The notes under the pieces were generated by a model. It was not told where the DNA came from, ran no database searches, and saw only the letters and a program-made list of their open reading frames with translations. From assembly GCA_902562835.1 (NCBI GenBank), contig CACEUX010000008.1:3726-67725 (forward strand): a DNA stretch of 64,000 bases, written 5' to 3'. Shown here piece by piece: positions 1,612-59,622 of this stretch (positions are counted from its first letter, which is position 1; each line of letters begins with the position of its first letter). This stretch comes from an uncultured Fidelibacterota bacterium. Lineage in GTDB: Bacteria; Fidelibacterota; Marinisomatia; Marinisomatales; UBA1611. The position numbers and the translations under genes are program-made.

Positions 1612-3294
1612 ATGAGTGAAAGTAATACTGTAATAAAAAATTTCATCCAAAAGATCATTGATGAGGATAACCTATCAGGCAAATGGAGTAGCCGTGTTCA
1701 TACTCGATTTCCACCAGAACCTAATGGATATTTGCATATCGGACATGCAAAATCTATTTGTCTTAATTTTGGTATCGCCGAAAAAAATAATGGAAAATGC
1801 AACCTTCGCTTTGACGATACTAATCCAGTAAAAGAAGAAGACGAGTATGTAAGGTCCATTATTGATGATGTGAAGTGGTTAGGCTTTGATTGGGGTGAGA
1901 GATTATACTATGCATCAGATTATTTTGATCAGATGTACGATCATGCCTTAACACTTATTCAAAATGGCGATGCATTTGTTTGCGACCAGAGCTCAGATCA
2001 AATGAGGGACTGTAGGGGCACTCTTAAGCAACCAGGAGCAGAAAGTCCTAATCGTAACAGAAGTATAGAAGAAAATCTTGAATTATTTCAGCGTATGAAA
2101 AATGGAGATTATCCAGATGGAGAGAAAACGCTGAGAGCCAAAATAGATATGTCGCATTCTAACCTCAACATGCGTGATCCCGTCATCTATCGTATTTTGC
2201 ATGCTTCGCACCATAGAACAGGAAATAAGTGGTGTATTTATCCAATGTATGATTGGGCCCATGGTCTAGAAGATTCCATCGAAAAGATCACTCATTCTAT
2301 TTGTACGTTAGAGTTTGAAGATCACCGCCCTCTCTATGATTGGTACTTGGAAAAACTAGACGTTTATCATCCGCAGCAGATAGAGTTTGCAAGGTTGAAC
2401 CTTAATTTCACTGTAGTAAGTAAAAGAAAGTTGAAAAAACTGGTCGATGAAAAACATGTTGAAGGATGGGATGATCCACGGATGCCAACAATCTCGGGAT
2501 TACGCCGGAGAGGATATACTCCATTATCGATACGTAATTTTGCAGAAGGGGTAGGAGTTACGAAGCGTGATTCAATTATTGATGTTGTAAGGCTGGAAAA
2601 TTCTTTGAGGGAAGAATTGAACAAGACAGCACCACGCGTGCTTGGAGTTCTGGACCCTCTCAAAGTGGTGATCACAAATTATCCAGAAAATAAAACTGAA
2701 TTGCTTGAAGCGATCAATAATCCTGAGGATGAAGATGCAGGGTCAAGGGAGGTCCCTTTCTCAAAAGAACTTTATATTGAAAAGAATGATTTTATGGAAG
2801 ACCCACCTAGGAAATTCTTTCGTCTTGGTCCTGGAAGAGAGGTTCGATTAAGGTACGCTTATTTTGTGACCTGTACAGATATTATCAAAGATGAAAATGG
2901 AACTATAAAAGAGATACATTGTACTTATGATCCTGAGACCAAAGGTGGTAATGCTCCAGATGGTAGAAAAGTAAAGGGAACGATACATTGGGTTAGCGCA
3001 GAACATGCTATTGATGCTGAGGTTCGACTTTATGATCGTCTTTTCAAAAAAGAAAATCCTGAAGAGGGTGGTGATTTTTTAGATGCTCTTAATCCAGATT
3101 CGTGTAAAATATTACCACATAGCAAATTAGAGCCATTATTATCAGAGCCAGAATCAATTATATATCAGTTTGAGCGTTTAGGATACTTTAAAAAGGATGA
3201 TGTTTTTTCATCTAATGTAAATGATGTTTTTATCCGAGTTGTGTCACTAAGGGATTCTTGGGCAAGAATGATGAAACAGGGCTCAGGTCAGTGA
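1612..3294 (+). CDS. glnS: Glutaminyl-tRNA synthetase
   Basis: 560-aa ORF with [17 protein letters not shown] (HIGH) and VVSKRKL (KMSKS-like). The C-terminal anticodon-binding region is typical of GlnRS. It starts 3 nt after the gltX stop. Confidence 0.92.
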
Positions 3295-3345
3295 TAGGTC
3301 TAAATTGGGTTGGATTAAACCAATGATTACCCCTAACTTGGGTCG

Positions 3346-4665
3346 ATGAAACCATTCATACGGATGCGCAAAGTTCTTCTATATCTGACTTTCTTATCCT
3401 TTGTTTTTGCAAAGGAACCATATGCTTACCTCTATCTTTTACCATTTGATAATATACAAAATGATCCGGCTGTGGAGTGGATAGCCACTGGTTTGAGTGA
3501 TATGGCTCGTGAAGAGATGAAAAATATTTATGGTGTCAGGATCAAAACAAAAGAAGATCTGGAGACGATCATGAACGATCGTTCGCTTATGTTAAAGCAG
3601 CCAAGAGGGTCTCGCAATCTTTTAGTCCTCGGTAAGTACAATCGACAACTGGATAAGGTCCACGTTACCATTCAGGTAATAGATGTTGCAAACTGGGAAG
3701 AACTTGCAAAGTCTCAGCTCACTGAGGTTTATACCCAAGTCCCAGCACTGAATAAAGCAGTTGGTTCATCTGTCCATCAAATGGTCAAACCCTTTTTGCC
3801 AACTCAGCCCAAAGTTGCGATATCCCCGTTCCCAAAGTATACTGAAAAGACTGTTGTTAAAAAAAGAAGCCCTGTATCTATACAGGCAGAAAAAGTTGCC
3901 TCCAGTCTAGATCAGCAGATCGCTGAATTAGAATCATCCATGGAATTTCTTTTAGGGGCCAAGGCTCGAGACAGAGAGAGGCCGAAAAAAGATATCTCTC
4001 GATTTGATTCTGGAGAGTGGACCATGGATTTTGATGTTGATCGCAAGATGGAAGAGAACCCCGAAAATGCTGGTAATACTCAACTGTTATCGGGCGTGTT
4101 GGACCAACTACTGACCAACCCTTATGAAGTGGAATTACAGCGCCCAGAGTTTGATTATCATGAGGATGATGAATTGTATATGACCGTCCGTTTTCCTGTC
4201 ATATACCGACTGAAAGATAAAATATTAAAGGATATGTTATCTGGGCTGCCGTATACGGGCATAGAGCAAGATGGCACACTGACAATTTTCTATTTTGATA
4301 GAACCAAATTCAATTTTCCTAAGCATCATGTCGATGCGATAAAATCTGGTTCATATAGGATCATACCTGTGATGAGAATATTCGATAAAAATCGAAATAC
4401 TCTTATTCTTGTTGCAGATACACCTGAAGAATATTGGCATTCCAGAAATAGTAATAAAGTTCTTTATATCCCTCAGCATCAGTTTTCACCATTGATAGAT
4501 TTTTCTGTGGGTGGGTGGTCCATCCAAGTTGCTATGGAAACAGTAGAGATTCAAGCAGTATACGAATTTATCCTGCCTGTTTCTGAGCTTGAGTCACTCA
4601 GTAATGTTAGTCTAAAATTCATAAATGAAACTGATCTTAAAACATTTCTTGATCCTATTCTCTGA
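3346..4665 (+). CDS. Hypothetical secreted protein
   Basis: 439-aa ORF with a hydrophobic N-terminal signal-like segment (VLLYLTFLSFVFA). I recognise no family motif. Confidence 0.6.
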   Translation: MKPFIRMRKVLLYLTFLSFVFAKEPYAYLYLLPFDNIQNDPAVEWIATGLSDMAREEMKNIYGVRIKTKEDLETIMNDRSLMLKQPRGSRNLLVLGKYNRQLDKVHVTIQVIDVANWEELAKSQLTEVYTQVPALNKAVGSSVHQMVKPFLPTQPKVAISPFPKYTEKTVVKKRSPVSIQAEKVASSLDQQIAELESSMEFLLGAKARDRERPKKDISRFDSGEWTMDFDVDRKMEENPENAGNTQLLSGVLDQLLTNPYEVELQRPEFDYHEDDELYMTVRFPVIYRLKDKILKDMLSGLPYTGIEQDGTLTIFYFDRTKFNFPKHHVDAIKSGSYRIIPVMRIFDKNRNTLILVADTPEEYWHSRNSNKVLYIPQHQFSPLIDFSVGGWSIQVAMETVEIQAVYEFILPVSELESLSNVSLKFINETDLKTFLDPIL

Positions 4666-4700
4666 TATTTGAAAGATATTAAAAGACATTGCCAGTAAGT

Positions 4701-5831
4701 ATGAAAAAAACACTTTTTATTATTTTAACCACACTTTCATTTGGGCAAAGACTCGATGAAATAGATATAGCATTAAATGAGCTAGAAACAATAGTTCAAA
4801 TGGCATCACGGTCATCCCAGAAAGTATTTGTAGAAGATTTCACTGGTCTTCAGTGACCATACTGTCCCTCTGCGAGTTTCGCAATATCACAGATGCTTGA
4901 TGATTATCCAGAGACATTAATGAGCATCGAATGGCATAATTCAAGTTTCACCCCTGGAAATTCAGATTTTGATATTCCAGAATATAGTTCTAGAGCCTCT
5001 ATGTATGGAGTGGGCGGTATCCCACACACTCAGTGGAATGGCGTACAAGAAACGGTTGGAGGCTATCCAAATGGTAACTGGGAACAGTTCATAGGAACTT
5101 TCACAGCACTATACAATAATATGGTTGGGAATGATACCCCTTATGAAGTGAGTATAAATGGCTATGCTGGTTTGGAGGTAAGCTACGAAGTAGCAGTTTC
5201 AATGGATTCTGATATGAGTAGCTCTAACCAAAAAGTTGATATATTTGTAGCCGAAGATAACATATGGTCTTATTGGACAGGTGCGAGCCAGTATCATAAT
5301 GCAAGAAATGTAGCAAGGGATTGGTTAGCTACAGAGGATCTGACAATTAGCTCAGAAGGTGAATCACAAATATTTTCAGGTAGTTTTGATCTTGATGAGG
5401 ATTGGAATTCAGACAGTGTAAAGATCATTGCAATTGTTCAAAACTATTCTTCAAAACAGATCTATCAGGTCACTGCCGTAAATATAAATGATATGAATCC
5501 AGATATAGATGATGATGGTGTTTTGAATGGAGAAGACAATTGTATAGATATTTATAATCCAGGCCAGGAAGATAGTGATAGTGACCTCATAGGTGATCTT
5601 TGCGACCCTTGTGACAATTTAGTTTATATTGCTGGAAATATAAATGGTGATACAAATGATAATGGGATTCCAGTTATTGATATCATGGATGTTCTTTCTT
5701 TAGTGGATTATTTGTTGTTTGATGATTCATACGCTTGTCAAGACCCTTCAATGAATTTTAATAATGATGAATTTGTTAATGTCGTTGATGTTATAGCATT
5801 GGTCCAATACATTTTGGGCGGAAATAACTAG
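4701..5831 (+). CDS. Selenocysteine-containing secreted thioredoxin-fold protein (family A, copy 1) with C-terminal TSP3 repeats and dockerin-like module
   Basis: ATG 4701 (MKKTLFIILTTLSFGQ signal) is in frame with the listed ORF 4893..5831, with no other stop between them. The only interruption is TGA 4854-4856 inside VEDFTGLQ-U-PYC-PSASFAI, a UxxC redox motif. A cis-Pro-like GGIPHTQWNG lies downstream. The C-terminus has DIDDDGVLNGEDNC..NPGQEDSDSD..CDPCDN (TSP3) and two Asp/Asn-rich dockerin-like segments. Confidence 0.82.
4854..4883 (+). promoter_or_regulatory. UGA(Sec) plus putative bacterial SECIS hairpin (copy A1)
   Basis: The hairpin TGCGA-GTT-TCGCA (4871-4883) starts 17 nt from the U of the UGA. 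Spacing matches copies A2 and A3. The closing pair is U-A here and C-G in the other two copies, a compensatory change. Confidence 0.6.
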
Positions 5832-5843
5832 GCGAGATAGTTT

Positions 5844-6371
5844 ATGGAGAGAATACATAGATCTACTTTTTATCTCTTTATACTAACAAATTTTATATTT
5901 GCTGACAGTAGTGATATTGGAAATACCATACCAGATCTCAAGATACGATTACTTGATGGTACAACCAAAACTATACATGAACTCGTTGATGATGGTCCTC
6001 TTATGATCGATTTTTGGGCTACATGGTGTGTGCCGTGTAAAAAGCTAATGAGATACCTAGACCAGTATCATCAGGATTATTCTAAGGATGGTTTTAAGGT
6101 GCTGATGATCAATACGGATACTCCTAGATCAATGGGTAAAGTAAAGTCATATGTAAGAGCTCAGGATTATAAATTCTATATTGGAATGGATCCTAATAAA
6201 ACGATCTCAAAGAAATTAAATGGGATGGTTATGCCCACTATGATACTTGTGGATAAAGGCGGGGAAGTGAAATGGCGTCATCAAGGCTACATATCAGGCG
6301 AAGAAATTGAGGTGAACAATCAGATCAAACAACTTTTGGAGAATAATCTTGAAGAAACATTTGAAGGCTAA
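5844..6371 (+). CDS. TlpA/ResA-like periplasmic thiol-disulfide oxidoreductase (Cys form)
   Basis: 175 aa with an N-terminal signal peptide. It has the FWATWCVPCKK thioredoxin active site and MPTMILVD (cis-Pro). Size is typical of the TlpA/redoxin family. Confidence 0.85.
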   Translation: MERIHRSTFYLFILTNFIFADSSDIGNTIPDLKIRLLDGTTKTIHELVDDGPLMIDFWATWCVPCKKLMRYLDQYHQDYSKDGFKVLMINTDTPRSMGKVKSYVRAQDYKFYIGMDPNKTISKKLNGMVMPTMILVDKGGEVKWRHQGYISGEEIEVNNQIKQLLENNLEETFEG

Positions 6372-8325
6372 AATCTTAAAAGAAGCAATTGTACTTATCG
6401 TGTGTACATCATATGTATTTGCTAATCAAGTAGATATGAATGGAGCTGTGAATTCAAATTTTGGAAACAGCTACGGATTTTATGACTTCTCTGAAAATAT
6501 ACTTGATCTAAATATATTTTATAATGACCTTCAAGGTTGGATACAGTATGAATATTCAAATCCTCCTGATATTGGTTTTGGGAAAAATGATATAAGAAAA
6601 TTTAGGCTTGAATACTCAACGGGAGATTTTATCCTAAAATTGGGTGACCTCTATGAGTTCTGGGGGCGAGGTCTTCTCCTTAATCAGTTTGATGATCAGG
6701 TGACTAATTTTGATAATGGTACCAGAGGGATGTTGATCGAGTATGACAGTGGCTCTCTTTCTGCAAGTCATATGAACGGGAATTCAAGTATATGGAACAT
6801 GGGAGCAGATACAAGAACGCCGGAATACAATAATATTCATAGCATGATGGCAAATCGATTAGAGTACAACAGGGGTCTTATTACATTAGGTCTAACCCAG
6901 CTTAGGTCAAATGAGGAACATGATGTGAATTTTGGTCCATCTGTTTTTGTCAGCCATGACCTTAAAGGTGCCTATGCTACATGGGCAAGCGGGAATGCAG
7001 ATCTTTTTGTAGAATATGTAGATAAAGTGTCAACGGAAAAAGTAACTATGTTTGGCACCATACCTAATGATACTTTGCTGAAAGGGCACGGCTACTATCA
7101 AAACTTTAATTTCTATTTTGGTAATTGGGGCATCTCAACTGAATACAAGCGGTATGCTTTTGATAGAGCATATGGTGATATAACTTCTGATGATTATGGT
7201 AACCAGATAGAATACCAGCAGATGCCAACACTTGGGAAGGAACATAATTCCACGTTGCTTGGTCGGCTGACACACAATTACAACTTCAATGACGAAAGAG
7301 GGGCGCAAGTTGAGGTGAATGGATCACTTCTTGGACTATCTATAACAGCCCAATACGCACATCTCAGTCGAAATGAAACATGGCAATCAGTTGGGTCATT
7401 TGAATGGACAGATAAGGCTATTGAGGGCTTTCTACCAAGTTCAGATATATCTGCTTTACCATATTGGGAAAATTACCAGGAAGTCAGTGGGTACGCATTC
7501 AATGATAAGTTCTATTTCAAACTTGGTAGGGGCTCAAATAAAGAAGTTTTAAAGACCATACGATATTTTGAAGGTACTCAGGTTGATATTTCATCTGTAG
7601 ATACTTCATTAACATGGGTCTATGATACACTCGTATGGAATGACGAGACATATTTTGATTCAACAGAAGTCGAACTTTATGATACCAATTATACATCGCC
7701 GTTTAATGTTGAGTCCAAGTTATGGCAAGAAAGTAAAGCTTTTACCATACCTCTGGAAGTGAACTATATTTTTGATAATGGATATACGCTCGGCCTGGGT
7801 TTTCAATACCAAGAGAGAGAAAAGGTAAATAGGTCAAAGGGTAATGCGACAACATTTAATGCCAGTGACTCATCATGGACGATGTACGACCCTGATGATT
7901 ATTCAAATACATATGATGAGACCGTAAGCCAACTTGCAAATCCAGATGGCGCTGTCAAAACACAATATAATCGGCTAGTTTATCTCTCCATAAGTAAAGC
8001 TCCTAAATGGTCTTTTACCATTACCCATGATATGACTAATGCATATGAAGCAAGCTCTCCATATGACCCATACTATAATCCACTTGAAGCATTGATCTCT
8101 GGTGATCTAAAATACTTCACAGGAAAGAGGAACAATATTGAACCACCCAGCTGGATACAAAATCGTTGGGTCTCCGTGGAGTTTGCCTATAATATCACAT
8201 CATCGCAAAGACTTTCAATTATGTATGGCTCAATCCAAGGCGGACTCTTTTGCAGTAATGGTGTTTGCAGACTTATACCCCCATTTAATGATGGGGTTAA
8301 GATCAGTTACAGTGCGAGTTTCTAA
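6349..8325 (+). CDS. Putative large outer-membrane beta-barrel protein (paralog 1)
   Basis: 658 aa with a signal-like N-terminus. Aromatic/Gly-rich alternating strands run throughout and the terminal residue is Phe (..KISYSASF), an OMP signature. It overlaps the TlpA gene end by 23 nt. The start (TTG 6349 or TTG 6361) is uncertain. Confidence 0.65.
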   Translation: MKKHLKAKILKEAIVLIVCTSYVFANQVDMNGAVNSNFGNSYGFYDFSENILDLNIFYNDLQGWIQYEYSNPPDIGFGKNDIRKFRLEYSTGDFILKLGDLYEFWGRGLLLNQFDDQVTNFDNGTRGMLIEYDSGSLSASHMNGNSSIWNMGADTRTPEYNNIHSMMANRLEYNRGLITLGLTQLRSNEEHDVNFGPSVFVSHDLKGAYATWASGNADLFVEYVDKVSTEKVTMFGTIPNDTLLKGHGYYQNFNFYFGNWGISTEYKRYAFDRAYGDITSDDYGNQIEYQQMPTLGKEHNSTLLGRLTHNYNFNDERGAQVEVNGSLLGLSITAQYAHLSRNETWQSVGSFEWTDKAIEGFLPSSDISALPYWENYQEVSGYAFNDKFYFKLGRGSNKEVLKTIRYFEGTQVDISSVDTSLTWVYDTLVWNDETYFDSTEVELYDTNYTSPFNVESKLWQESKAFTIPLEVNYIFDNGYTLGLGFQYQEREKVNRSKGNATTFNASDSSWTMYDPDDYSNTYDETVSQLANPDGAVKTQYNRLVYLSISKAPKWSFTITHDMTNAYEASSPYDPYYNPLEALISGDLKYFTGKRNNIEPPSWIQNRWVSVEFAYNITSSQRLSIMYGSIQGGLFCSNGVCRLIPPFNDGVKISYSASF

Positions 8326-8399
8326 GTTTGCTCTAATGCACGAAGAATGTTAGACTCTAGAGTTGATTTTAACGAATTTTTAATTATCAAAGTAAAAAA

Positions 8400-9575
8400 A
8401 TGAAAAACCTATATATAATACTACTGATATCATTACCCTTTGCTCAGCAACTGGATCCTGTTGATATGGCCGTTGAAGAATTAAGAACTATAGTTGAAGC
8501 TGCATCAAGATCAAGTCAGCGTGTTTTTGTTGATGACTTTACAGGACTAAACTGACCATACTGTCCATCCGCGAGTTTCGCGATTTCAGAAATGTTAGAT
8601 GAGTTTCCTGGAACCCTAATCAGCACTGAGTGGCACTCAGCGGGCTATACGCCAGGAGATTCTGACTTTGAAGAGTGTTATTATTATGACAACTTTGGAG
8701 GCTGTTATGGTGCAAGAGCTAGTCTTTATGGCGTAGGAGGCATCCCACACACAGAATGGAATGGTATATATGACCTGACAGGAGGTTGGGCTAATGGTAA
8801 TTGGGAACCAGCGTATAATTATTTTATTGGGTTCTATAATGACCTGATTGGAACTGAAACCCCCTACGAGATCATTATCAATGGAATAAAAGATGGCTCA
8901 ACAGTTAATTATGAGATTACTGTTTCTATGGATGATGACTATTCTGTCCAGAACCAAAAAGTAGAAATAATAGTTGTAGAGGATAACATTATGTCATACT
9001 GGGCAGGTGCAAACCAAGACCATAATGCAAGGAATGTTGCAAGGTATTGGATAGGCACTGAAGACCTGACCATCAATTCAGCTGGGCAATCACAAACTTT
9101 TTCAGGATCATTTGAGATAGATGAAGAAGCATGGAACTCTGACAGTGTTAAAATTATTTCAATGGTTCAGAATTATGGGAATTATGAAGTATTTCAAGTT
9201 CAAGAGATAAATGTTAACGAATTTGATACGGATCAGGATGGCGTGGTAAATAATGAAGATAATTGTGAGGCAGACTATAACCCTGGGCAAGAAGATATAG
9301 ATGGAGATGGACTAGGCGATGCATGTGATCTCTGCGACAACACAAACATATACATACCTGGTAATGTCAGTGGTGATTATTGGTATTATGATACTAGTAG
9401 TCTAGAACCGACGGTAACTATTGATGTGTTTGACGTTTTAAAACTTTCGGAGATCATCGTATCAGGGGAAGAAGAGAGTTGTGGATATCAAGCCGGCGAT
9501 CTAACTGGAGATGGTGATGTTAATATAATTGATGTTATTGCACTTGCTTCGTTTATAATGGACGGCGCGTTCTAG
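8400..9575 (+). CDS. Selenocysteine-containing secreted thioredoxin-fold protein (family A, copy 2) with TSP3 and dockerin-like C-terminus
   Basis: ATG 8400 (MKNLYIILLISLPFAQQ) is in frame with ORF 8592..9575. The single in-frame TGA 8553-8555 sits in VDDFTGLN-U-PYC-PSASFAI. DTDQDGVVNNEDNC..NPGQEDIDGDGLGDACDLCDN is TSP3, and GDLTGDGDVNIIDVIALASFI is a dockerin-like repeat. Confidence 0.83.
8553..8582 (+). promoter_or_regulatory. UGA(Sec) plus putative bacterial SECIS hairpin (copy A2)
   Basis: The hairpin CGCGA-GTT-TCGCG (8570-8582) starts 17 nt from the UGA. It lies within a 36-nt block identical to copy A3. Confidence 0.6.
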
Positions 9576-9609
9576 TTATTACTTTTCAATTTGAACTAGT
9601 CATAAAAAA

Positions 9610-9636
9610 GGTGGTTGTTATAACCGCCTTTTTTTT
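9610..9636 (+). terminator. Rho-independent terminator after family A copy 2
   Basis: GGTGGTT-GTTAT-AACCGCC stem-loop followed by T8 (9629-9636). Confidence 0.7.
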
Positions 9637-9774
9637 GACTTTATCCAACGTTTTTTAATTTATTGAAAAATATAATTTTTTATTTTAAAGCTTATAATAT
9701 TAACTATTGAGTTTTATATGTGTTTTCAACTATTATTGTGTTAGTCTGAATTGAGAACTACCAAGAGGTTAATC

Positions 9775-10980
9775 ATGAAAAAAGCTCGTTCAATAGCACT
9801 TTCATTTATTACAATCACATTTATTTCTACATTCCTTCCTGCACAGGCACTTGATCACAGGCACATGGCGTTCGAGAATCTACGCATGTCTGTTATGAAT
9901 GCTTCTCAAAGTGGCCAAAATGTTTATGTTGAAGACTTTACAGGTCTTAACTGACCATACTGTCCATCCGCGAGTTTCGCGATTGATACACTTCTAAAAG
10001 AATTTCCAGGTACACTTCACTCAATTGAATGGCACAGTCCAGGTTACACTCCAGATTCTTCTGACTTTTGTCTCCAAACAGAGTTTTACATGAGAGCTGG
10101 TCTATACGGAGTTAGTGCTTACCCTACCACTGTATGGAATGGTGTGCATAATCAGGTGGGTGGAGCCAGTGGTGGGAACTGGGAATCCATATATCCTGGA
10201 TATTTAGAGTTATATCATGAGCATTATGACCTGCCATCTCAATTTCGTCTTGGCATATCAGGTGAATATGAGCCTGGAGATAATGAGGTCAATTTTAGTG
10301 TAGAGATACTAATTGACAACGATATTGATACTACTGTAAACATTGAGAATACCTATGTTGAAGTATTCGCTGTTGAAGATAATATTTATTCCTTCTGGGG
10401 AAGTGTTGGGCAGTGGCATAACGCCAGGAATGTAGCAAGAAGGTACGTCACAAAAAGTGAAGCCAATAAGAATCCAGTTTCGGTAAGCGAAGCGGGACAG
10501 TCAGAGATCTTTGAGCACAATTTACTCTTGTCAGATGCCTGGGAGCATTCAAATGTGAAAATAGTTGCTATTGTGCAACAATTTCAAGGTGAAGGATCTG
10601 ACCATCCCATTACTCAAGCTCAAACAAGAAATATAAATGATCTAGATCCTGATCCGGATGGTGATGAATTGACCTATCTTTATGATAACTGTCACTATGT
10701 ATACAATCCTGGGCAAGAAGATGCTGATGGAGACGAATATGGAGACGCCTGTGACGCATGTAATGGACTTGTAAATATTCAAGGGAATGTAGACCTTGAT
10801 GCTCATGGAGAAAATTTTACTCCGATCATTGGTGTGGCTGATGTTTTAGCATTATCTGATCTTCTTGATGGTAGTGGTCTTCCTCCAAATGATTGCCAGT
10901 CTATAGATATGCTTGAAGATGGAACGATAAATAACTTCGACCTGATAGTATTGGTAGATGTGGTAATGGCAGGAGGCTAG
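9775..10980 (+). CDS. Selenocysteine-containing secreted thioredoxin-fold protein (family A, copy 3) with TSP3 and dockerin-like C-terminus
   Basis: ATG 9775 is preceded by AAGAGG (SD-like) and opens a signal peptide, MKKARSIALSFITITFISTFLPAQA. ORF 9751..9954 and ORF 10090..10980 share a frame and are joined by stop-free sequence after TGA 9952-9954, in VEDFTGLN-U-PYC-PSASFAI. SAYPTTVWNG is cis-Pro-like. DPDPDGDE..NPGQEDADGDEYGDACDACNG is TSP3. Confidence 0.83.
9952..9981 (+). promoter_or_regulatory. UGA(Sec) plus putative bacterial SECIS hairpin (copy A3)
   Basis: The hairpin CGCGA-GTT-TCGCG (9969-9981) starts 17 nt from the UGA. Confidence 0.6.
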
Positions 10981-11058: not shown

Positions 11059-12003
11059 ATGAAAGTTATTTTGTTCTATTTCCTTCGTTTACTTTTAATT
11101 ACTTCTTTTGCAGTAATGCCTATTCAGGCTCAACTCCAAGTTGGAGATATTTCCCCTGATTTTAGTGGTCCAATGTGTATGAATGGAGAAGATGTTAACC
11201 CTGATATTGTAACAGGTGATTACTGGAGTTTATTCGAGGAAGGAGATGGAAAGGTTACATGGATAAACTTATTCACTTCATGGTGACCATCCTGTCAGGT
11301 GGAGGCTCCACAAACAGAAAGTATATGGCAGGACTTCTTAGCAGAAAATGAAAATTATCTTAATATAGTTGCCAATGGCTTTGACTGGACATCTTACACG
11401 TGTGCAGGGTGGGCCTCAGCATTTGGAATTACATATCCTATGATAGATGGTGGATCAAGTGGTGGGGAAGCTTGGAATCTTTTTGGAGATGGTTATATTC
11501 CTCACAATGTTGTTCTAGATCATAACCACGAGGTGCTTTACACATCCTCAGGATATAGTGAAGGTGCGATCATGGCTGCTATAGAACTTGGATTATCATA
11601 TGTTCCAAGAGATGAAGATGGAGATGGGATCATGGATAGTACTGATAATTGTATTGATGTTCCTAATGATGACCAATTAGACCATGATTTGGATGGTCTT
11701 GGCGATGCTTGTGACCTTTGCAACAACTTAGAAATATATGTTACTGGTAATATAGATGGGTCTGTTGGTATGACCGATCATAATCCAACCATAGATCTGT
11801 TTGATATACTTCGTTTGTCCGATATTGTCCTCTTGGGTGTAGATGAGGGCTGTGGCTATGAGATCAGTGATATTAGAGAAGATGGAGTTATAAACATTCT
11901 TGATATTATTACATTGGTACAGTACGTCCTCTATGGTGAATTGCCTGATGAGAATACAATCGCTATACCACCTAACGCATATCTCTTATCTGAAAATAAT
12001 TGA
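11059..12003 (+). CDS. Selenocysteine-containing TlpA-like thioredoxin-fold secreted protein (family B, copy 1) with TSP3 and dockerin-like C-terminus
   Basis: ORF 11059..11286 (signal peptide, ..WINLFTSW) and ORF 11299..12003 are in the same frame. They are separated only by TGA 11284-11286, which gives W-U-PSC-QVEAP. This aligns with WCxPC..E.P of TlpA-type redoxins. YIPHNVVLD is cis-Pro-like. DEDGDGIMDSTDNC..DHDLDGLGDACDLCNN is TSP3, and a dockerin-like tail follows. Confidence 0.82.
11284..11311 (+). promoter_or_regulatory. UGA(Sec) plus putative SECIS hairpin (copy B1)
   Basis: The hairpin GTGGA-GGC-TCCAC (11299-11311) starts 15 nt from the UGA. Confidence 0.55.
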
Positions 12004-12138: not shown

Positions 12139-15100
12139 ATGCTGAATAATAAGAAACATCTGTACAAAAGCATCATCACCCTAATGGCCTTTTCTTGTTT
12201 TATTTTTGGTCAAACCGATTTCTCATTCAAAAATATATCAGTCAAGGATGGGCTTGCTGAGAGTACTGTTAAAGTAATTTATGAAGACCAGAATGGTTTC
12301 ATATACTTTGGCACAGAAAACGGCCTCGATGTTTTTGATGGCTATGAGTTTACAAATTATCAAATGAACTCATTCAATGAATTATCAATTCTTGGCAATA
12401 AGATCTCAACCATTTATGAAGATGCCAGTCATATGATCTGGGTTGGCACTGAATTAGGCGTCAGTAAGTTTGATCCATCGAAAAGAGAATTTTCAAGGCC
12501 TATTAAACTTGATGGGGCAGACCTAATTAATTCTGAAACTATTATTGACGACGGTCAAGGTAACATTTATATCAAATTGAGAGATGATGGTTTAGTTTAT
12601 CAGTACAATGGTGTTGATAGTGTATTGACATGTTTTAATTGTTCAGATGAATCAGTCATAAATGATGAGATGGTTACCGTTTTAAGTAAAGATTCTAAGG
12701 GTACTATCTTAATTGGAACCAATACTGGCCTACGCTACTATGATATCAAGTCAAATCGAATTATCAAAGTAGGTGTTGAAGCTGGATTAGATGATATATC
12801 TGTGAATGCCATAGAGCGCGGAGCCAAAAATGATATTTGGGTTGGAACCTCAAATGGTCTATTCAAATTAAATGGTGGTCTAGGTGGTAGTATAGATGTT
12901 TATAGAAAAAATGAACAAAGTACATCAATAGTTTCAAATTATGTTAAAGATCTGGATTGGGATGTAGAGAGAAATGAACTATGGATAGCAACCCAAAATG
13001 GTATTTCTCGTTACATACCTTCAGAGTCAAGTTTTTTTAATATCCAGATGACACCATATGCAGACAGTATAATAGAAAATGATATATCTGAAATACTTAT
13101 TGCAGTTAAATCAGGTCGTTTATGGTATACTACTGAAAATCATTCTGGGCTGAATTGTTTATCGGTGGGAGAGGATTTCGATTCTGAAGGTCCACCTCCG
13201 GCAAACCATTTTGAGCATGACCCCATTGATAAAGGATCCATAGCGGATAATGAGATCAATGATTTTATTGAAGACAAAGCTGGTCATGTTTGGATAGGTA
13301 CGGGACAAAATGGTATCAGTTTCTTTTCCTATGTTAAACCAAAGTTTGTGAACCATAGATATGATCAGGAGAATGAATGGGGTTTAAAGAGTGACAAGAT
13401 ATATTCTATCACTACGCAGAGTGACGGCATGATGTGGGTAGCTACTGGTTTTGGTCTTGAAAAAATTTCATATGATGGTATCAGGGACCAAGAGTATGAA
13501 AAGTCTCTCCTAAATGTCAACTATATAATTGACCTTGAGATCATAAATGATGTGATGTTGTGGGTAGCGACAGATCAAGGCATACTAAAGATCGATACTT
13601 GGAACGATTATGATGCTGAAAATATTATTAGGTTTTCGGAATCAGATAGCCTTCCGCCATCAAGACGAATATCAAATAATCTAGTTCATGATATTTTGCC
13701 CATTGAAGATAAGATCTGGGTTGCCACAGGATCTGGTATGGTGATAATTGATACAACAACTAATAGTGTCACAGATTTTAATTCAGATCTGATCGCAAGA
13801 GTTATTTCAAAGGACTCTAGTGGTAATATTTGGCTTGGAACGGAAATGGATGGACTTTTTAAGATTCCATACGAACTATTGGGCGATATTGAAAAGGGAG
13901 AAGATTTTGAGTTAGAGGGGCATATCTTTGATAAGGCTTTTACTAGTGGTATTTCTTCTTCCCAGATAACTTGTATTACGGAAGATAAAAATGGAGTGAT
14001 CTGGGTTGGTACTAACGGAGGCCTTAATAAGTATATCAGTGAAAAAGATAATTTTGAGCATTATTTTGTTCAAGATGGTCTGCCGAGTAACTATATAACA
14101 GGTGTGCTTGTTGATAAAACTAATGGGTTGTGGATCAGTTCAAAAAAAGGAATTTCATTTTATGACCAGGTTAATTCAACATTCACCAATTACAGTCTTA
14201 CAGATGGTATAGGTAATATTGATTTTCATAGGCATAGCTATGATCAAAGTGCAGATGGAAGTATATTTTTTGGTGGGCCAATGGGCATAACATTGGTCAA
14301 TCCGGCAGAATTACAATTCAATGATTATCAACCACCCTGTTTGATTACTAGACTTAAGAAAACCTATTTTGATGATTCAGTAAAAGAAATATACTCATTC
14401 GATGATTCCGATGGCTCCAATGGGGGAGAGAGTATTTCAACCATAGTGATCGATCATAGAGTAAAATCATTTAGTATTGATTTTGTGGCTCTCAACTATC
14501 ATCAAACTGTAAAAAACCAATACAGGTATAAGTTAGAGCCATTTGATAGGGACTGGGTATCATCTCAAGGGTTACGTTTTGCATCGTATAATAATCTTGG
14601 AAGAAGTACTTATAATTTTATGGTTCAAGGCTCTAACGATGATGGGGTATGGTCCGCACCTGCAAAGTTAGATATCAAATTTACGCCACATCCTCTTTTA
14701 AGTATTTGGGCTTTCTCTTTCTATTCAGTCCTTTTGATCATTGGTATATTTATTTTCATGCGTCACCGTATGCATAAACAAAAATATCAACTAGAGGAAG
14801 AACGACGCATTCAAGAGCTCGAGCAAGCGAGAGATTTTCAAATGTCCTTGATACCGCAAAGCCCACCAGATCACCCTGACTATGATATTGCACTGCATAT
14901 GAAAACATCAACGGAAGTCGGTGGGGATTATTATGACTTTTTTCCACAAGAAGATGGCTCTATGTATGTTGTGTGTGGTGACGCAACTGGCCATGGTTTA
15001 AATGCTGGAATGATGGTCTCTATCACAAAAGCAGGACTCTATGGGTCGGACTTTGACACACCTTCAAGTACAACCACACGTCTGAATAGAACTATTAAGG

Positions 15101-15519
15101 CAATCGATCTTGGTACAACTCGGATGTCTTTAAATATGGCAAAATTTAATAACGGGTCTTTTGATTTCACATCAGCAGGAATGCCCCCGGCATATCTATA
15201 TAAACACTCTACAAAAGATGTAAATGAAATACTTGTTCCGGGGCTTCCATTGGGTTCAATGAAAAAAGCAGATTTTGATTTACATTCTTTTGATCTTGAT
15301 ACAAACGATGCTCTTGTTTTGATCTCTGATGGACTTCCAGAGTGTGTAAACCATGAGGGTGAGATGCTAGACTATGAGCCGGTTAAGGATTGTATTACAG
15401 CAAATGGAAATAAAACAGCACAGGGTATTATTGATTCTCTGATCGATCTTGGCGATGACTGGATGTCGGGTTTAATGAATGATGATGATATTACTCTTGT
15501 GGTAATAAAGAAAAAGTAA
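12139..15519 (+). CDS. Sensor protein: periplasmic two-component-regulator beta-propeller repeats, one TM segment, cytoplasmic PP2C/SpoIIE-type phosphatase
   Basis: 1126 aa. Many repeats of the ..G.IW.GT..GL..(F/Y).. type are typical of regulator propeller domains. A hydrophobic segment (WAFSFYSVLLIIGIFIF) follows. The C-terminus has GGDYYDFF...GDATGHGLNAGMM...DDITLVVI, matching SpoIIE/PP2C motifs. Confidence 0.8.
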   Translation: MLNNKKHLYKSIITLMAFSCFIFGQTDFSFKNISVKDGLAESTVKVIYEDQNGFIYFGTENGLDVFDGYEFTNYQMNSFNELSILGNKISTIYEDASHMIWVGTELGVSKFDPSKREFSRPIKLDGADLINSETIIDDGQGNIYIKLRDDGLVYQYNGVDSVLTCFNCSDESVINDEMVTVLSKDSKGTILIGTNTGLRYYDIKSNRIIKVGVEAGLDDISVNAIERGAKNDIWVGTSNGLFKLNGGLGGSIDVYRKNEQSTSIVSNYVKDLDWDVERNELWIATQNGISRYIPSESSFFNIQMTPYADSIIENDISEILIAVKSGRLWYTTENHSGLNCLSVGEDFDSEGPPPANHFEHDPIDKGSIADNEINDFIEDKAGHVWIGTGQNGISFFSYVKPKFVNHRYDQENEWGLKSDKIYSITTQSDGMMWVATGFGLEKISYDGIRDQEYEKSLLNVNYIIDLEIINDVMLWVATDQGILKIDTWNDYDAENIIRFSESDSLPPSRRISNNLVHDILPIEDKIWVATGSGMVIIDTTTNSVTDFNSDLIARVISKDSSGNIWLGTEMDGLFKIPYELLGDIEKGEDFELEGHIFDKAFTSGISSSQITCITEDKNGVIWVGTNGGLNKYISEKDNFEHYFVQDGLPSNYITGVLVDKTNGLWISSKKGISFYDQVNSTFTNYSLTDGIGNIDFHRHSYDQSADGSIFFGGPMGITLVNPAELQFNDYQPPCLITRLKKTYFDDSVKEIYSFDDSDGSNGGESISTIVIDHRVKSFSIDFVALNYHQTVKNQYRYKLEPFDRDWVSSQGLRFASYNNLGRSTYNFMVQGSNDDGVWSAPAKLDIKFTPHPLLSIWAFSFYSVLLIIGIFIFMRHRMHKQKYQLEEERRIQELEQARDFQMSLIPQSPPDHPDYDIALHMKTSTEVGGDYYDFFPQEDGSMYVVCGDATGHGLNAGMMVSITKAGLYGSDFDTPSSTTTRLNRTIKAIDLGTTRMSLNMAKFNNGSFDFTSAGMPPAYLYKHSTKDVNEILVPGLPLGSMKKADFDLHSFDLDTNDALVLISDGLPECVNHEGEMLDYEPVKDCITANGNKTAQGIIDSLIDLGDDWMSGLMNDDDITLVVIKKK

Positions 15520-15570: not shown

Positions 15571-16107
15571 TTGCGTTGGTGTCCTCGTTTTTTATCAGCT
15601 CAAGATAAGGTACCGAACATAAGACTTAAAATGATAAACGGTAAATACGCAAAATTATACGATTTTCTCAAAGAAGGACCTATGATAATTGATTTCTGGG
15701 CAACCTGGTGCGAGCCATGCAAAAAGCAAATGCGCTATTTAGACCTTTTCTATAATCATTTTAAACCATCTGGGTTTAATGTCCTCACGGTTAATACTGA
15801 TTCACCAAAAAGTATGAGCAAGGTAAAGCCTTATATTCGTACAAAAGGTTTTGAATTCAATGTTGCCGTAGATCCAAATAGCCAGGTGAAAAAGAGACTC
15901 AAAGTACAGGAAATGCCTACAACGATAATTATTGATCAGGATGGTTCAATATTGTATCGTCACAAGGGCTATGTTCCAGGCGATGAAGTTGGTATTCTAA
16001 AGGCTGTAACTGATATCCTTGATAAAAAAGGTATAGAATATCTACCTCTAGACCTCGATAAAGTCCAAGCAGTAAAGAAACAAGAGAAACTTAATATTGA
16101 TTTTTAG
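15571..16107 (+). CDS. TlpA-like thiol-disulfide oxidoreductase (Cys form), apparently frameshifted from its signal peptide
   Basis: FWATWCEPCKKQM active site and MPTTIIID cis-Pro. It is a close paralog of 19382..19960. As listed it has no signal peptide. A signal peptide (GTG 15549, MKRLIIIIALVSSF) lies in the neighbouring frame, across a T6 run at 15588-15593. Confidence 0.75.
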   Translation: MRWCPRFLSAQDKVPNIRLKMINGKYAKLYDFLKEGPMIIDFWATWCEPCKKQMRYLDLFYNHFKPSGFNVLTVNTDSPKSMSKVKPYIRTKGFEFNVAVDPNSQVKKRLKVQEMPTTIIIDQDGSILYRHKGYVPGDEVGILKAVTDILDKKGIEYLPLDLDKVQAVKKQEKLNIDF

Positions 16108-18385
16108 AATATACAATTTGACCAAGCTCCTTAATAGTACGCTTTTCTGTTCTGGAATCTTATTTACAACATTAGTCAATGCACAAATAAGTACAGGAGG
16201 AGATGCTTCACTTAAATTTGGTGAGAGTAAGAATAATTTTAATTATTCTGAGGTCTTATTAAATATGAATGTCAGCAATGATTACCTAACAACATGGTTT
16301 CAGTTTGAATATAGTAACCCTCCTGAAATTGGCTTAACTAAAAATGGCTTAAGAAAGTTTAGGGTAGATTATGTTGGAGATAATATTGAACTTTCTGTCG
16401 GAGACATTTACAAAATATGGGGAAGGGGACTTATCCTAAATCAATTTGATGACCAAGATGTAGACTTAGATAATGGATATAGGGGCTTAAGTTTTGGACT
16501 GATAGAAAATGATTATTCATTAAATCTTATTGCAGGTAATTCAAATATATCTAACATTACTTCTGATTATATGTATGACCTCGATCTTGAAGTTCGAAAG
16601 CCAAATTATTTTCCAAAGCATTCCTTATTTGGTGGCGATTTTGAGTTGTTCCGTGGTCCGGTATCTTTTGCAACATCTTTTTTGCAAAGTCGTGAGAGCC
16701 ATCCTATCAATGCTGGTATGCAACCAGATAGCATCGATGTTATTCACCGAATACATGGGCTAAGAAGTGGGTATGAAGGAAACTCATTAAGTGGGTATGT
16801 AGAATTGGCAAATAAATTAACTCTTCTACCCACATCTATGGGAAGTGATGATCATGAAGATTTTAGACCTTATAATGGAACCTCTTTATTTGCAAATCTG
16901 AATTACTATTTTAACATGTCACCCTTTGATGGTTGGTCACTCATGATGGAGTATAAGAATTACAATACTACAAAGATCAATCCAGACCAAAGGAATAATT
17001 ATGTAAATAATTATGACATGAATTTGATCTTCACTCAACCACCTACAGTGATTCGTGAGCATAGTAGTGTATTGCTAGCAAGGCTGATTCCGCAGGTCAA
17101 TTTCAATGACGAGGTGGGCTACCAACTCTCACTCGTAGGCCCAGTTAGTAATCTAGGGTATTTTACTCTTAATTATCAGGCTGCCAGCAGGACCAGCTTA
17201 TGGGCAAAAGAATTTCCAGATACTGTAAACGCGGCATTTAGTTCAAAATGGAGTGGCGATAGTTCTATAACTTATTTACCATATGATGATGATGTCACGT
17301 TTCCTTATAATGAGTTGTATGTTGAAATGGAAGGGTATATCAATAAGATACGATATCAACTTGGTTTAGGCTTTACAAATAAAATATCTGAATACCATTC
17401 TCTCTATAGTAGTGCTCAAAATAATAGCTGGGACATAGGTGAGTTATTTACAGATCTTAATAATAGTGGTACATGGGATCCGGGTGAACCTTATGATGAT
17501 CTATATAGTATTGTAAATGAGAGATTAGAGAATAAATATACCAATGCTGTCACAGTACCAACGTTGTTTAATTATAATCTGGGAAATGGATTGAGCATCG
17601 ATCTCAAATATGAGTACCAAAGGTTGAAAAGTGGTGTTAATTATAATTTCACATTGTCATCGGATGAGTACTTCGAAGATCTTGATGGAGATGGCTTATG
17701 GGATATGGCAGAGTTGTTTACTGATGATAATGAAAATGGTGTGTGGGATGATGCTGAAGAAACTTGGTATGATAATTGGTTGAATGGTTGGATTTCTGAT
17801 GACCTTTTACCAAATTATGACACGAATGGCAATGGTGAATATGATATTGGAGAATATTTTTCTGATGCAGATGGTGATGGTATTTGGGACCCCGCTGAAG
17901 CTTTCACTGACCTTGATGGTGATGGAATATGGGATGATGGAGAGGTCTTGGACGATATGAATAATGATGGTGTATGGACACCAAAAGGAACTTACGTAGA
18001 TAGTACAAGATCTAACTTTTATGCCTATGATGGCGATAGCGATGAAAAGCTAGCTCAAGAATTTCAAAATAATCATATGTTAACAATTGGTCTTGGAAAG
18101 TCACCTTATTGGTCTTTATCATTGACCATAGAATCAAGTTCAGCGTACGAATATGGACCTCAACCTTTAAGCATCTCTAATCCACTTGAAGATCTACTTG
18201 GCAACATTATGGATATGGAAAACAAATGGGTGGCAATCGACCTTATGATAAATATCAACTCAAATACACGTCTTGATCTTATGTATGGGACTTTAAGAGG
18301 TGGTGTCATTTGTAGTAATGGTATTTGTAGATATGTTGAACCATTTGATGACGGATTCAAGCTAAGTTTGACCTCAGTATTCTGA
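16097..18385 (+). CDS. Putative large outer-membrane beta-barrel protein (paralog 2) with Asp-rich repeat insertion
   Basis: 762 aa. It shares N-terminal (WFQFEYSNPPEIG...LILNQFDDQ) and C-terminal (GG.ICSNGICRYVEPFDDGFKLSLTSVF) blocks with 6349..8325 and ends in Phe. It overlaps the upstream TlpA-like gene by 11 nt. Confidence 0.65.
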   Translation: MIFRIYNLTKLLNSTLFCSGILFTTLVNAQISTGGDASLKFGESKNNFNYSEVLLNMNVSNDYLTTWFQFEYSNPPEIGLTKNGLRKFRVDYVGDNIELSVGDIYKIWGRGLILNQFDDQDVDLDNGYRGLSFGLIENDYSLNLIAGNSNISNITSDYMYDLDLEVRKPNYFPKHSLFGGDFELFRGPVSFATSFLQSRESHPINAGMQPDSIDVIHRIHGLRSGYEGNSLSGYVELANKLTLLPTSMGSDDHEDFRPYNGTSLFANLNYYFNMSPFDGWSLMMEYKNYNTTKINPDQRNNYVNNYDMNLIFTQPPTVIREHSSVLLARLIPQVNFNDEVGYQLSLVGPVSNLGYFTLNYQAASRTSLWAKEFPDTVNAAFSSKWSGDSSITYLPYDDDVTFPYNELYVEMEGYINKIRYQLGLGFTNKISEYHSLYSSAQNNSWDIGELFTDLNNSGTWDPGEPYDDLYSIVNERLENKYTNAVTVPTLFNYNLGNGLSIDLKYEYQRLKSGVNYNFTLSSDEYFEDLDGDGLWDMAELFTDDNENGVWDDAEETWYDNWLNGWISDDLLPNYDTNGNGEYDIGEYFSDADGDGIWDPAEAFTDLDGDGIWDDGEVLDDMNNDGVWTPKGTYVDSTRSNFYAYDGDSDEKLAQEFQNNHMLTIGLGKSPYWSLSLTIESSSAYEYGPQPLSISNPLEDLLGNIMDMENKWVAIDLMININSNTRLDLMYGTLRGGVICSNGICRYVEPFDDGFKLSLTSVF

Positions 18386-18507: not shown

Positions 18508-19374
18508 ATGAAGCAGCTCATTTCAATATTGATAATACCATTCTTTCTTAGTATTTCACCACTTGATGGTCAAGATGTTTACATGGAAGATTTTAGTGTA
18601 CCTATATGTGAAAACGGTAATGGAGAAGATACTCTACACTTTTTTGAAGCATATAATGGTGCATATAACGATTGTGGTTACAAGGTGATATTTGCCACTC
18701 TTTTTACCTCCTGGTGAGGATACTGCTGGGGGGAGGCTCCCCTCACACAGCAGTTATACGACACATATAATGACCAAGGCCTTGAAGTGGTTGCATTTGG
18801 AGCTGATTGGGGTGAGCCATATACTTGCCAACAGTGGATGAACTCATTTGATATTACATATCCCATTGCTGACTTTGAGACTGGCATGCCTAATTGGTAT
18901 CAAGAGGATATACCTATCAATCTACAGATGCATCAAATAGGTTGGGGCCTACCTTACAATATTATTATAGACCATAATATGGAGGTCATCTGGGGGGGCG
19001 TAAATGACATTGCTGAGGAAGAAGTATGGGAAGAGGCTGTTACAATGATAGAAAGTGCTCTGAATCATTTGAATGCGGAGGCACTCGTTGATAATGATGG
19101 GGATGGTATAGCTAATGAATGTGATGATTGCCCTGACTCACATCTATATACCTTAGGAAATTTTGATTTTTCAGAAGAAATCGTAGTTGATGGTCTTAAC
19201 TTTGTATATGCCCCTAGCATAGAAGTTTATGATCTACTTTTCCTTTCAGATCTAGTTAGCAGTGGTGATGAAATTTCACCATGTTATATTGAGGCGAGTG
19301 ATTTTACTGGTGATAATGCTCTGGATTTAATTGATATAATGGCTTTAGCTAGCTATATAGTAGAGGGTAATTAG
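18508..19374 (+). CDS. Selenocysteine-containing TlpA-like thioredoxin-fold secreted protein (family B, copy 2)
   Basis: ORF 18508..18717 (signal peptide, ..ATLFTSW) and ORF 18787..19374 are in frame. TGA 18715-18717 gives W-U-GYC-WGEAP, with stop-free sequence between the two ORFs. GLPYNIIID is cis-Pro-like. DNDGDGIANECDDCPD is a TSP3-like repeat, followed by a dockerin-like tail. Confidence 0.8.
18715..18744 (+). promoter_or_regulatory. UGA(Sec) plus putative SECIS hairpin (copy B2)
   Basis: GGGGA-GGC-TCCCC core (18730-18742), extendable to 18728-18744 with one G-U pair. The offset from the UGA is 15 nt, as in copy B1. Confidence 0.55.
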
Positions 19375-19381
19375 AAAAATC

Positions 19382-19960
19382 ATGACCATTAAGGCTCGAT
19401 ATGATATGCTTAGAAAGATATTTTTTTTTACAATGCTCTTTACATTGGCATATTCGCAAGGCAAGGTTCCAAATGTACGTCTAAAAATGTTAGATGGTAG
19501 CTCAGCCAAACTTTATGATTACCTCAAAGATGGGCCTATGATCATTGACTTTTGGGCAACTTGGTGTGAGCCATGTAAAAAACAGATGCATCATCTAAAT
19601 AAATTTCACCAGCATTTCAAAGATGCTGGATTTAAGGTTCTTACTGTTAATACTGATACTCCAAAAAGTATGGGCAAGGTGAAATCATATATAAGGTCAA
19701 AGAAATTCAAATTTTTTGTAGCTGTAGATCCTAATGGTCAAGTAAAGAAAAAATTAAAAGCAGAGCTCATGCCGACTACGATCTTAGTTGATACGGATGG
19801 CTCGGTGCTTTATCGTCATCAGGGGTATTACCCAGGAGATGAAGATAAAATATTAAAACATATCACGGACTATTTTGATGCAGCAGAAATAAGCTATGAC
19901 CCATACGATACTGAAAAGAAAAAACAGACAGCTAAAAAGCAAGTAGATATAGATTTTTAG
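19382..19960 (+). CDS. TlpA-like periplasmic thiol-disulfide oxidoreductase (Cys form)
   Basis: 192 aa with signal peptide (IFFFTMLFTLAYSQG), FWATWCEPCKKQM and MPTTILVD. It starts 8 nt after the family B Sec gene. Confidence 0.85.
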   Translation: MTIKARYDMLRKIFFFTMLFTLAYSQGKVPNVRLKMLDGSSAKLYDYLKDGPMIIDFWATWCEPCKKQMHHLNKFHQHFKDAGFKVLTVNTDTPKSMGKVKSYIRSKKFKFFVAVDPNGQVKKKLKAELMPTTILVDTDGSVLYRHQGYYPGDEDKILKHITDYFDAAEISYDPYDTEKKKQTAKKQVDIDF

Positions 19961-21617: not shown

Positions 21618-22409
21618 GTGAAAATTAAACTAATCATCACATTATTTTTAATGACGCTTTCTAGTGCACAAGTTTATGATGTGGGCGATTTTGCACCATC
21701 CGATTTTGGACTTCCTTGGTGTGGTAATAACCCAGCTGGTGATGATAGTTTATTTTTGAGTGCATATAATGGAGCTATCAATGAAACAGGCCGTCCCTAT
21801 GTCATATGGTTGACTGCTTTTACAACTTGGTGAGGATATTGTTTGACGGAGGCTCCTGTCACTCAAGAATACTTTGATCTCTATGCTGATTCAGGATTAG
21901 TTGTGATTGGAATGGGAGGCGACTGGGGCCAACCTTACACCTGTGAAGGGTGGGTAGACAACTTCGGTTTAGGTTACCCTATAATATCTGATGAGGATAC
22001 CTACAATGAATATGAATATGGAGGTTTAGGAACTAATTTATTTACAGATACTTGGGTTCCATATAATATGATAATAGATCATACAATGGAGATAATCTAT
22101 TCGTCATCTGATTATTATGGTCAGGAAGGATATGACCTAATTTTCGATAAGCTCTTTGGCGCCTTAAATAAATGTACTCTATGCACCTGCTCAGAAGTTC
22201 TTGGAGACATTGACCATACATATACCATTGATAATGAACCTATCATTAATATAATGGATTTGTTAAGGCTCTCGGATCTTATTACAACGGATACGCGAAT
22301 GAACCATTGCGAGAGAGGGCAGGGAGATATTACTGGAGATGGTGTTTTGAATACGATCGATCTTTTTGCTTTTGCAACCATGATCTCAGAAGGTGTCTTT
22401 GATAACTAA
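21618..22409 (+). CDS. Selenocysteine-containing TlpA-like thioredoxin-fold secreted protein (family B, copy 3; dockerin-like tail only)
   Basis: ORF 21618..21833 (GTG start, signal peptide, ..LTAFTTW) and ORF 21843..22409 are in frame. TGA 21831-21833 gives W-U-GYC-LTEAP. WVPYNMIID is cis-Pro-like. The C-terminus GDITGDGVLNTIDLFAFATMI is dockerin-like. I see no TSP3 repeat. Confidence 0.78.
21831..21860 (+). promoter_or_regulatory. UGA(Sec) plus putative SECIS hairpin (copy B3)
   Basis: GGA-GGC-TCC core with a possible bulged U and outer GAC/GTC pairs (21845-21860). It is weaker than copies B1 and B2. Confidence 0.4.
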
Positions 22410-52461: not shown

Positions 52462-52467
52462 GCCTTC

Positions 52468-56870: not shown

Positions 56871-56879
56871 GGAATAAAT

Positions 56880-58524: not shown

Positions 58525-58533
58525 TTATTAATT

Positions 58534-59606: not shown

Positions 59607-59622
59607 GATATCGGAAAAAATT

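Follow-up and report, generated by a model that had tools for sequence, protein, structure and literature searches.

The in-frame TGA codons of three neighbouring genes

We analysed a stretch of 64,000 nucleotides from an uncultured Fidelibacterota bacterium (assembly GCA_902562835.1, contig CACEUX010000008.1, positions 3,726 to 67,725; hereafter the window), in which three neighbouring genes on the plus strand, A1, A2 and A3, are each interrupted by a TGA codon that very probably specifies selenocysteine (Sec). Translation from the ATG codons at 4701, 8400 and 9775 gives frames of 376, 391 and 401 codons with a single TGA each; the frames run on past the TGA into the listed open reading frames (ORFs) that begin at 4893, 8592 and 10090, and no further stop codon or frameshift was found. 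In all three paralogs the TGA is preceded by (E/D)DFTGL(Q/N) and followed by PYCPSASFAI, and (I/T)EWH is also present, while GGIPHT(Q/E)WNG occurs in two paralogs and SAYPTTVWNG in the third. The TGA positions, starts, ORF joins and motifs given by the original prediction, made from the sequence alone, were reproduced exactly to the base upon retranslation. The signal peptides of A1-A3 (MKKTLFIILTTLSFGQ, MKNLYIILLISLPFAQQ and MKKARSIALSFITITFISTFLPAQA, respectively) contain no Cys and hence no lipobox Cys, so the three proteins are not lipoproteins.

Profile searches placed A1, A2 and A3 in the NCBIfam family NF045500, 'Omp28-related selenoprotein' (587.1, 514.5 and 467.9 bits, respectively, at a cut-off of 200 bits; model positions 1-377), and weak matches to an MJ0307-type thioredoxin, to thrombospondin type 3 (TSP3) repeats and to dockerin were found in them. 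The family is already known: it was described as 'Hypothetical protein GOS_C' (Zhang & Gladyshev 2008, PLoS Genet 4:e1000095, PMC2398784), where 74 sequences with Sec and 312 Cys homologs were reported, together with a UxxC motif, a thioredoxin-like fold and a selenocysteine insertion sequence (SECIS) found by prediction; it has since been curated as NF045500, and a 2022 review still listed it as GOS_C with the function unknown. Sequences in the GOS_C supplement of PMC2398784 (e.g., ...VFVEDFTGLNUPYCPSASFAIAQLLYQYPETL...) are near-identical to the window proteins with U at the same site, and there is no essential difference between GOS_C/NF045500 and A1-A3. We regard the identification of these three neighbouring genes as paralogous selenoproteins of the GOS_C ('Omp28-related selenoprotein') family as secure, with little room for another outcome.

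Table 1. Coordinates of the paralogs A1-A3, their predicted Sec codons and hairpins, and neighbouring genes in the window (aa, amino acids; HMM, hidden Markov model; AF2, AlphaFold2).
Feature	Position	Strand	Evidence
Paralog A1, 376 aa: signal peptide, thioredoxin-like UxxC domain, Omp28-like beta-sandwich, TSP3 repeat, dockerin-like module	4701..5831	+	translation, HMM, AF2, Foldseek
Predicted Sec codon (UGA) of A1	4854..4856	+	translation, conservation, Sec/Cys alignment
SECIS-like hairpin of A1, UGCGA-GUU-UCGCA	4871..4883	+	covariation, folding
Paralog A2, 391 aa, architecture as A1	8400..9575	+	translation, NF045500 514 bits, Dockerin_1 22.4 bits
Predicted Sec codon (UGA) of A2	8553..8555	+	translation, conservation
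SECIS-like hairpin of A2, CGCGA-GUU-UCGCG	8570..8582	+	covariation, folding
Paralog A3, 401 aa, architecture as A1	9775..10980	+	translation, NF045500 468 bits
Predicted Sec codon (UGA) of A3	9952..9954	+	translation, conservation
SECIS-like hairpin of A3, CGCGA-GUU-UCGCG	9969..9981	+	covariation, folding
439-aa neighbour, signal peptide or membrane anchor, no family match, syntenic across species	3346..4665	+	synteny, profile search
TlpA/ResA-like redoxin, WATWCVPC (Cys form), conserved neighbour	5844..6371	+	synteny, profile search
DUF6029 protein, probable outer-membrane beta-barrel; signal peptide, C-terminal ...YSASF	6349..8325	+	synteny
Redoxin/AhpC-TSA-like candidate selenoprotein B1, TGA 11284	11059-12003	+	FT(S/T)W-U-xxC, signal peptide
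Redoxin/AhpC-TSA-like candidate selenoprotein B2, TGA 18715	18508-19374	+	FT(S/T)W-U-xxC, signal peptide
Redoxin/AhpC-TSA-like candidate selenoprotein B3, TGA 21831	21651-22409	+	FT(S/T)W-U-xxC, signal peptide

Conservation of the codon, the downstream hairpin and the fold

The TGA was found at the identical codon in 42 of 42 family members, i.e., those of the window and of 32 loci in the Marinimicrobia genomes of about 30 species (one genome per species was scanned). All 32 loci lie in metagenome-assembled genomes (MAGs) of Candidatus Neomarinimicrobiota / Marinimicrobia (SAR406), and the closest of them, from 'bacterium TMED46' (identity 94-99%), shows the three-paralog layout likewise. A search of 5.8 billion predicted proteins gave about 120 close homologs among the matches listed, of which 119 of 120 were called 5'-truncated (nearly all with 276-312 aa and beginning just past the UGA). 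The sole full-length call among these listed matches (P0002) has a 'W' at the site, yet its contig reads TGA, which indicates that it was called with genetic code 4; a further homolog with 'W' at the U column (P0151) is probably a code-4 call too. The ratio of non-synonymous to synonymous polymorphism (pN/pS) was 0.41 for the 35 codons upstream of the TGA and 0.47 downstream of it, and because the two values are similar the signal-peptide piece is taken as a coding part of the same gene.

Relatives that lack the TGA were collected by an exhaustive HMMER search, in which the query began one residue past U and ran through the sandwich domain (479 relatives). In the alignment of full-length homologs without TGA, the U column coincides with the first Cys of a C-x-x-C motif in 26 of the 27 sequences (DCYYCP, YCPYCG, GCPYCT and the Bacteroidota-type NCPYCP), and the candidate cis-Pro is invariant across the alignment. 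In the one exception, P0122, neither redox residue is retained (FVGSLDQYSPSVSFAI); this protein of 495 aa, 59% identical in the representative search and with a longer and different C-terminal region, may be a paralog without catalytic function. Two Cys forms were located in genomes: a Cys paralog (L031, 2237-3298, YCPYCG) in MAG UBA7303, which also holds a Sec form (L014), and a second one (L034, 479-1627, DCYYCP), whose protein (P0128/L034) ends in a type IX secretion system (T9SS) sorting domain (Por_Secre_tail) and not in the dockerin-like tail. Nothing informative was found in the gene context of the Cys homologs P0128 and P0211, whose contigs are short or uninformative.

The mRNA hairpin predicted downstream of the UGA is small: a 13-nt CGCGA-GUU-UCGCG element, consisting of a 5-bp stem and a GUU loop, begins 14 nt past the UGA, with the loop at 19 nt. 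Across 37 distinct sequences, 99.3% of the hairpin cells were paired, and compensatory changes were present at two pairs (the outer one being C-G, U-A, A-U or U-G, and another G-C or A-U), all of them synonymous or conservative at the codon level; in A1 the outer pair is U-A rather than C-G, through two synonymous changes. The covariation score was reached by none of 500 shuffles and pairing collapsed in slid registers. All 37 sequences use AGT for the Ser in the loop, and synonymous divergence is 0.52 in the 12 codons past the UGA compared with about 0.75 elsewhere. The two genomic Cys forms (L031 and L034) served as a negative control: the codons ...GCA AGT TTC GC. are kept in them while the inner hairpin pair is broken (A.C), which looks like a decayed SECIS. 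From this pattern, the element is predicted to be a bacterial SECIS-like hairpin with a G in the apical loop. A lower stem, CUG(U)...(A)CAG, seen in A1 and some orthologs, was dropped; it is out of register across the family and absent from A3.

The structure of the product was modelled with AF2. With truncated homologs alone, the thioredoxin domain had a predicted local distance difference test (pLDDT) score below 50 and the model was unusable; the rerun with Cys homologs in the alignment, which we used, gave a pLDDT of 88 and a predicted template modelling score (pTM) of 0.73, with strand 1 and the UxxC loop at about 97. In this model, a strand (residues 42-48) is followed by U52 in a loop, a helix (55-68), a strand (73-79) and a helix (94-102), and then the invariant Pro108, strands 109-112 and 116-119 and a helix (128-141) complete the thioredoxin fold, beyond which lie a beta-sandwich (148-261), a TSP3 loop and dockerin-like helices (328-372). 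The original prediction had placed the UGA inside a redox motif, at the N-terminus of helix 1; the residue indeed falls on the first Cys of C-x-x-C in the Cys homologs, and in the model U52 stands between strand 1 and helix 1. The resemblance to Omp28-related lipoproteins that it suggested was borne out in part: NF045500 was matched far above its cut-off and the Omp28 models were matched weakly (NF033782, 50, 44.6 and 38.5 bits for A1, A2 and A3, under the cut-off of 150; Pfam PF11551, 32.8, 34.9 and 32.0 bits, A2 being exactly at the cut-off of 34.9 and the others under it), but the lipoprotein part of the comparison failed on the missing lipobox Cys.

The best match found by Foldseek in the Protein Data Bank was HBP35 of Porphyromonas gingivalis (5y1a; E 1.1e-12, 259 columns); the Omp28 domain 2r2c and many thioredoxins were matched as well. 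HBP35 is an exported surface protein in which a beta-sandwich likewise comes after a thioredoxin-like CxxC domain, and a thioredoxin-like motif and thioredoxin activity are described for it by Shoji et al. (2010, PMC2907840). It differs from the window proteins, to which its identity is about 16%, by Cys in place of Sec and by a T9SS C-terminal domain in place of the TSP3 repeat and dockerin-like module; A1-A3 have no T9SS C-terminal sorting domain and end in the latter two. The Omp28 lipoproteins of Bacteroidota (PF11551, NF033782, 2r2c) are homologous to A1-A3 in their FTGxxCPYCP thioredoxin-like N-domain and Omp28 beta-sandwich, whereas A1-A3 score at or below the cut-offs of that family, lack the lipobox Cys and have Sec and extra C-terminal modules. 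With the thioredoxin-fold UxxC selenoproteins that have a bacterial SECIS (e.g., the Trx-like and Prx-like families of the GOS selenoproteome), A1-A3 share Sec for the N-terminal Cys of CxxC and, 3' of the UGA, a hairpin whose apical loop contains G, but their hairpin is unusually small (5 bp and a triloop) and without an Rfam match, and the protein is multidomain and exported. We found no literature that links Omp28 to selenoproteins, and none of relevance on selenocysteine in Marinimicrobia.

Proposed mechanism and alternative explanations

We propose that the in-frame UGA is decoded as Sec during translation, and that the 5-bp GUU-loop hairpin would act as the bacterial SECIS for SelB and Sec-tRNA(Sec). 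The product would be an extracytoplasmic, non-lipidated protein made with a signal peptide, with a U-P-Y-C redox centre in the N-terminal thioredoxin fold, in which Sec, as the first residue of the centre and its nucleophile, would stand where helix 1 begins, followed by the Omp28/HBP35-like beta-sandwich, one putatively calcium-binding TSP3 repeat and a dockerin-like double F-hand module. In the periplasm or at the cell surface, it may serve as an oxidoreductase of thiol-disulfide or other chalcogen substrates; its probable partners would be the TlpA-like redoxin and the DUF6029 outer-membrane barrel, whose genes are syntenic with it, and the C-terminal module possibly serves calcium-dependent anchoring. 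Of the functions considered for A1-A3, that of an exported thiol-disulfide oxidoreductase cooperating with these two partners is the most likely one. We hold this account, when taken as a whole (Sec decoding, exported product and proposed role), to be highly probable.

Several observations weigh against it. None of selA, selB, selD and tRNA-Sec was found within the 64-kb window, and no cohesin was found among its ORFs. An Rfam scan in gathering and E-value modes returned no SECIS family, just tRNAs and noise, and folding of single sequences of 42-67 nt past each UGA gave unremarkable z-scores (-0.9 to -2.0), so the support for the hairpin comes from covariation among related sequences. Where the proteins are located, what they act on and what the dockerin-like module does are inferences.

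The fact that gene callers split or truncate all of A1-A3 might be explained if these were pseudogenes or if the TGAs were sequencing or assembly errors. The codon, however, recurs in every family member, from independent assemblies as well as from the 2008 Sanger reads, and purifying selection acts on either side of it in frames that have no other lesion; the probability of this explanation is vanishingly small, and the earlier view that three pseudogenising mutations are implausible is upheld by the same data. Nor is it credible that UGA is a sense codon here (Trp in code 4 or Gly in code 25) and the residue not Sec, as the 'W' in some public calls (P0002, probably P0151) might suggest, because 11 of the window's 39 long ORFs end in TGA, and the codon is absent in frame from the roughly 19,000 codons that make up long ORFs, among them the gene for a 4306-aa protein. 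A scan for TGA codons that join an ATG-started piece to a long ORF returned only the A1-A3 sites, three W-U-x-x-C sites and ordinary gene boundaries; the six UxxC-type sites lie within 22 kb, and in-frame TGAs are confined to such positions, which align with Cys and not with Trp or Gly. Apart from these sites, UGA is an ordinary stop in the window and does not serve there as a sense codon in general.

If translation started downstream of the UGA (ATG 4893, 8592 and 10090), the products would be cytoplasmic proteins without a redox centre and the upstream pieces would be separate small ORFs or untranslated. An in-frame ATG does occur 13 codons past the UGA in A1 and A2, but in A3 the next ATG is 46 codons away, the 35 codons upstream are under purifying selection, the thioredoxin fold, modelled with confidence, includes strand 1 and the UxxC loop as integral parts, and the Cys homologs are continuous through this point, all of which leaves such a start very improbable; the original prediction had named a start 3' of the UGA, without a signal peptide, as one outcome that would overturn it, and the selection on the upstream piece speaks for the opposite. 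Another explanation assumes near-cognate or suppressor read-through, with Cys or Trp inserted and the hairpin acting as a generic read-through stimulator, instead of Sec insertion mediated by SelB. It draws on the Sec machinery not being seen within the window and on SAR406 single-cell genomes being listed in the literature only with an 'orphan SelD', although SelD itself argues for selenium use in SAR406. A UGA in place of the first Cys codon of CxxC, together with a G-containing apical loop, is the standard signature of bacterial selenoproteins, six such sites occur in 22 kb, and the GOS_C family is accepted in selenoprotein catalogues; we consider suppression improbable by a wide measure and retain Sec decoding as the preferred explanation.

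Gene neighbourhood and implications

The order glnS, 439-aa protein, selenoprotein, TlpA/ResA-like redoxin (WATWCxPC) and DUF6029 protein (1612-8325 in the window) is kept in about 25 Marinimicrobia species (loci L001-L030), with a rearranged order of this gene module in one clade. DUF6029 has been likened in the literature to Wzi-type outer-membrane barrels. A second pair of TlpA-like redoxin and DUF6029 genes occupies 15571-18385 of the window, and 19382-19960 encodes a third redoxin of the TlpA-like kind. In both pairs the redoxin ORF shares 11-23 nt, read in different frames, with the start of the DUF6029 ORF behind it (5844-6371/6349-8325 and 15571-16107/16097-18385, with TTG starts listed), which suggests translational coupling or a misplaced start.

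The three W-U-x-x-C sites belong to B1, B2 and B3 (Table 1), whose sequences are present in the GOS selenoprotein supplement (Zhang & Gladyshev 2008, PMC2398784) and for which no NCBIfam model was matched at its cut-off. The tails of B1 and B2 consist of TSP3 and dockerin-like modules as in A1-A3 and that of B3 of the dockerin-like module alone, and their hairpins 3' of the UGA have a GGC(U) loop, with G first, at the same distance as in A1-A3. Two signalling genes on the plus strand lie among the Sec genes and are possible regulators: one for a large sensor protein that combines Reg_prop beta-propeller repeats with Y_Y_Y and SpoIIE (PP2C) phosphatase domains (12139-15519), and an adenylate/guanylate cyclase (20194-21474).

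Elsewhere in the window, the 4306-aa protein (23434-36354, plus strand) has many Big_13 immunoglobulin-like domains and a T9SS C-terminal sorting domain, and three more putative T9SS cargo proteins are encoded at 44403-47084, 47137-47901 and 47940-51917 (including an M6-type metalloprotease); from the sorting domain and the putative cargo genes it follows that the organism has a type IX secretion system. A cluster resembling those for type IV pili or type II secretion systems, with a pilin carrying an N-methylation motif, PilT ATPase, PilM, PilN, PilO and a PilQ-type secretin, occupies 52048-61083 on the plus strand.

Beyond what was known of GOS_C, the analysis adds the Marinimicrobia/SAR406 host, the presence of three copies in one locus, a minimal predicted SECIS backed by covariation, an HBP35-like fold, the conserved synteny with TlpA-like and DUF6029 genes, and a cluster of six dockerin-tailed Sec genes. 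It also brings to light a systematic mis-annotation, in which nearly all public entries of the family lose the signal peptide and the catalytic residue through 5' truncation or a wrong genetic code, and it confirms that true Sec codons can be recognised from raw sequence by a first-stage reader. The GOS_C family (SAR406) is abundant in ocean waters, at the surface as well as at depth, and leads to its function are offered by its link to the fold of HBP35 and Omp28, by the TlpA-like and DUF6029 genes conserved beside it and by the dockerin-like tail common to six Sec proteins. These six proteins with signal peptides (three Omp28-like and three redoxin-like, in 22 kb) might dock through calcium-dependent, cohesin-type contacts on a common envelope scaffold, forming an extracytoplasmic selenium redox assembly that would receive electrons from the TlpA-like redoxins and be coupled to the DUF6029 barrels. 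We think this unlikely, but if true, it would represent a 'cellulosome-style' arrangement of redox enzymes in an abundant uncultured phylum of the ocean.

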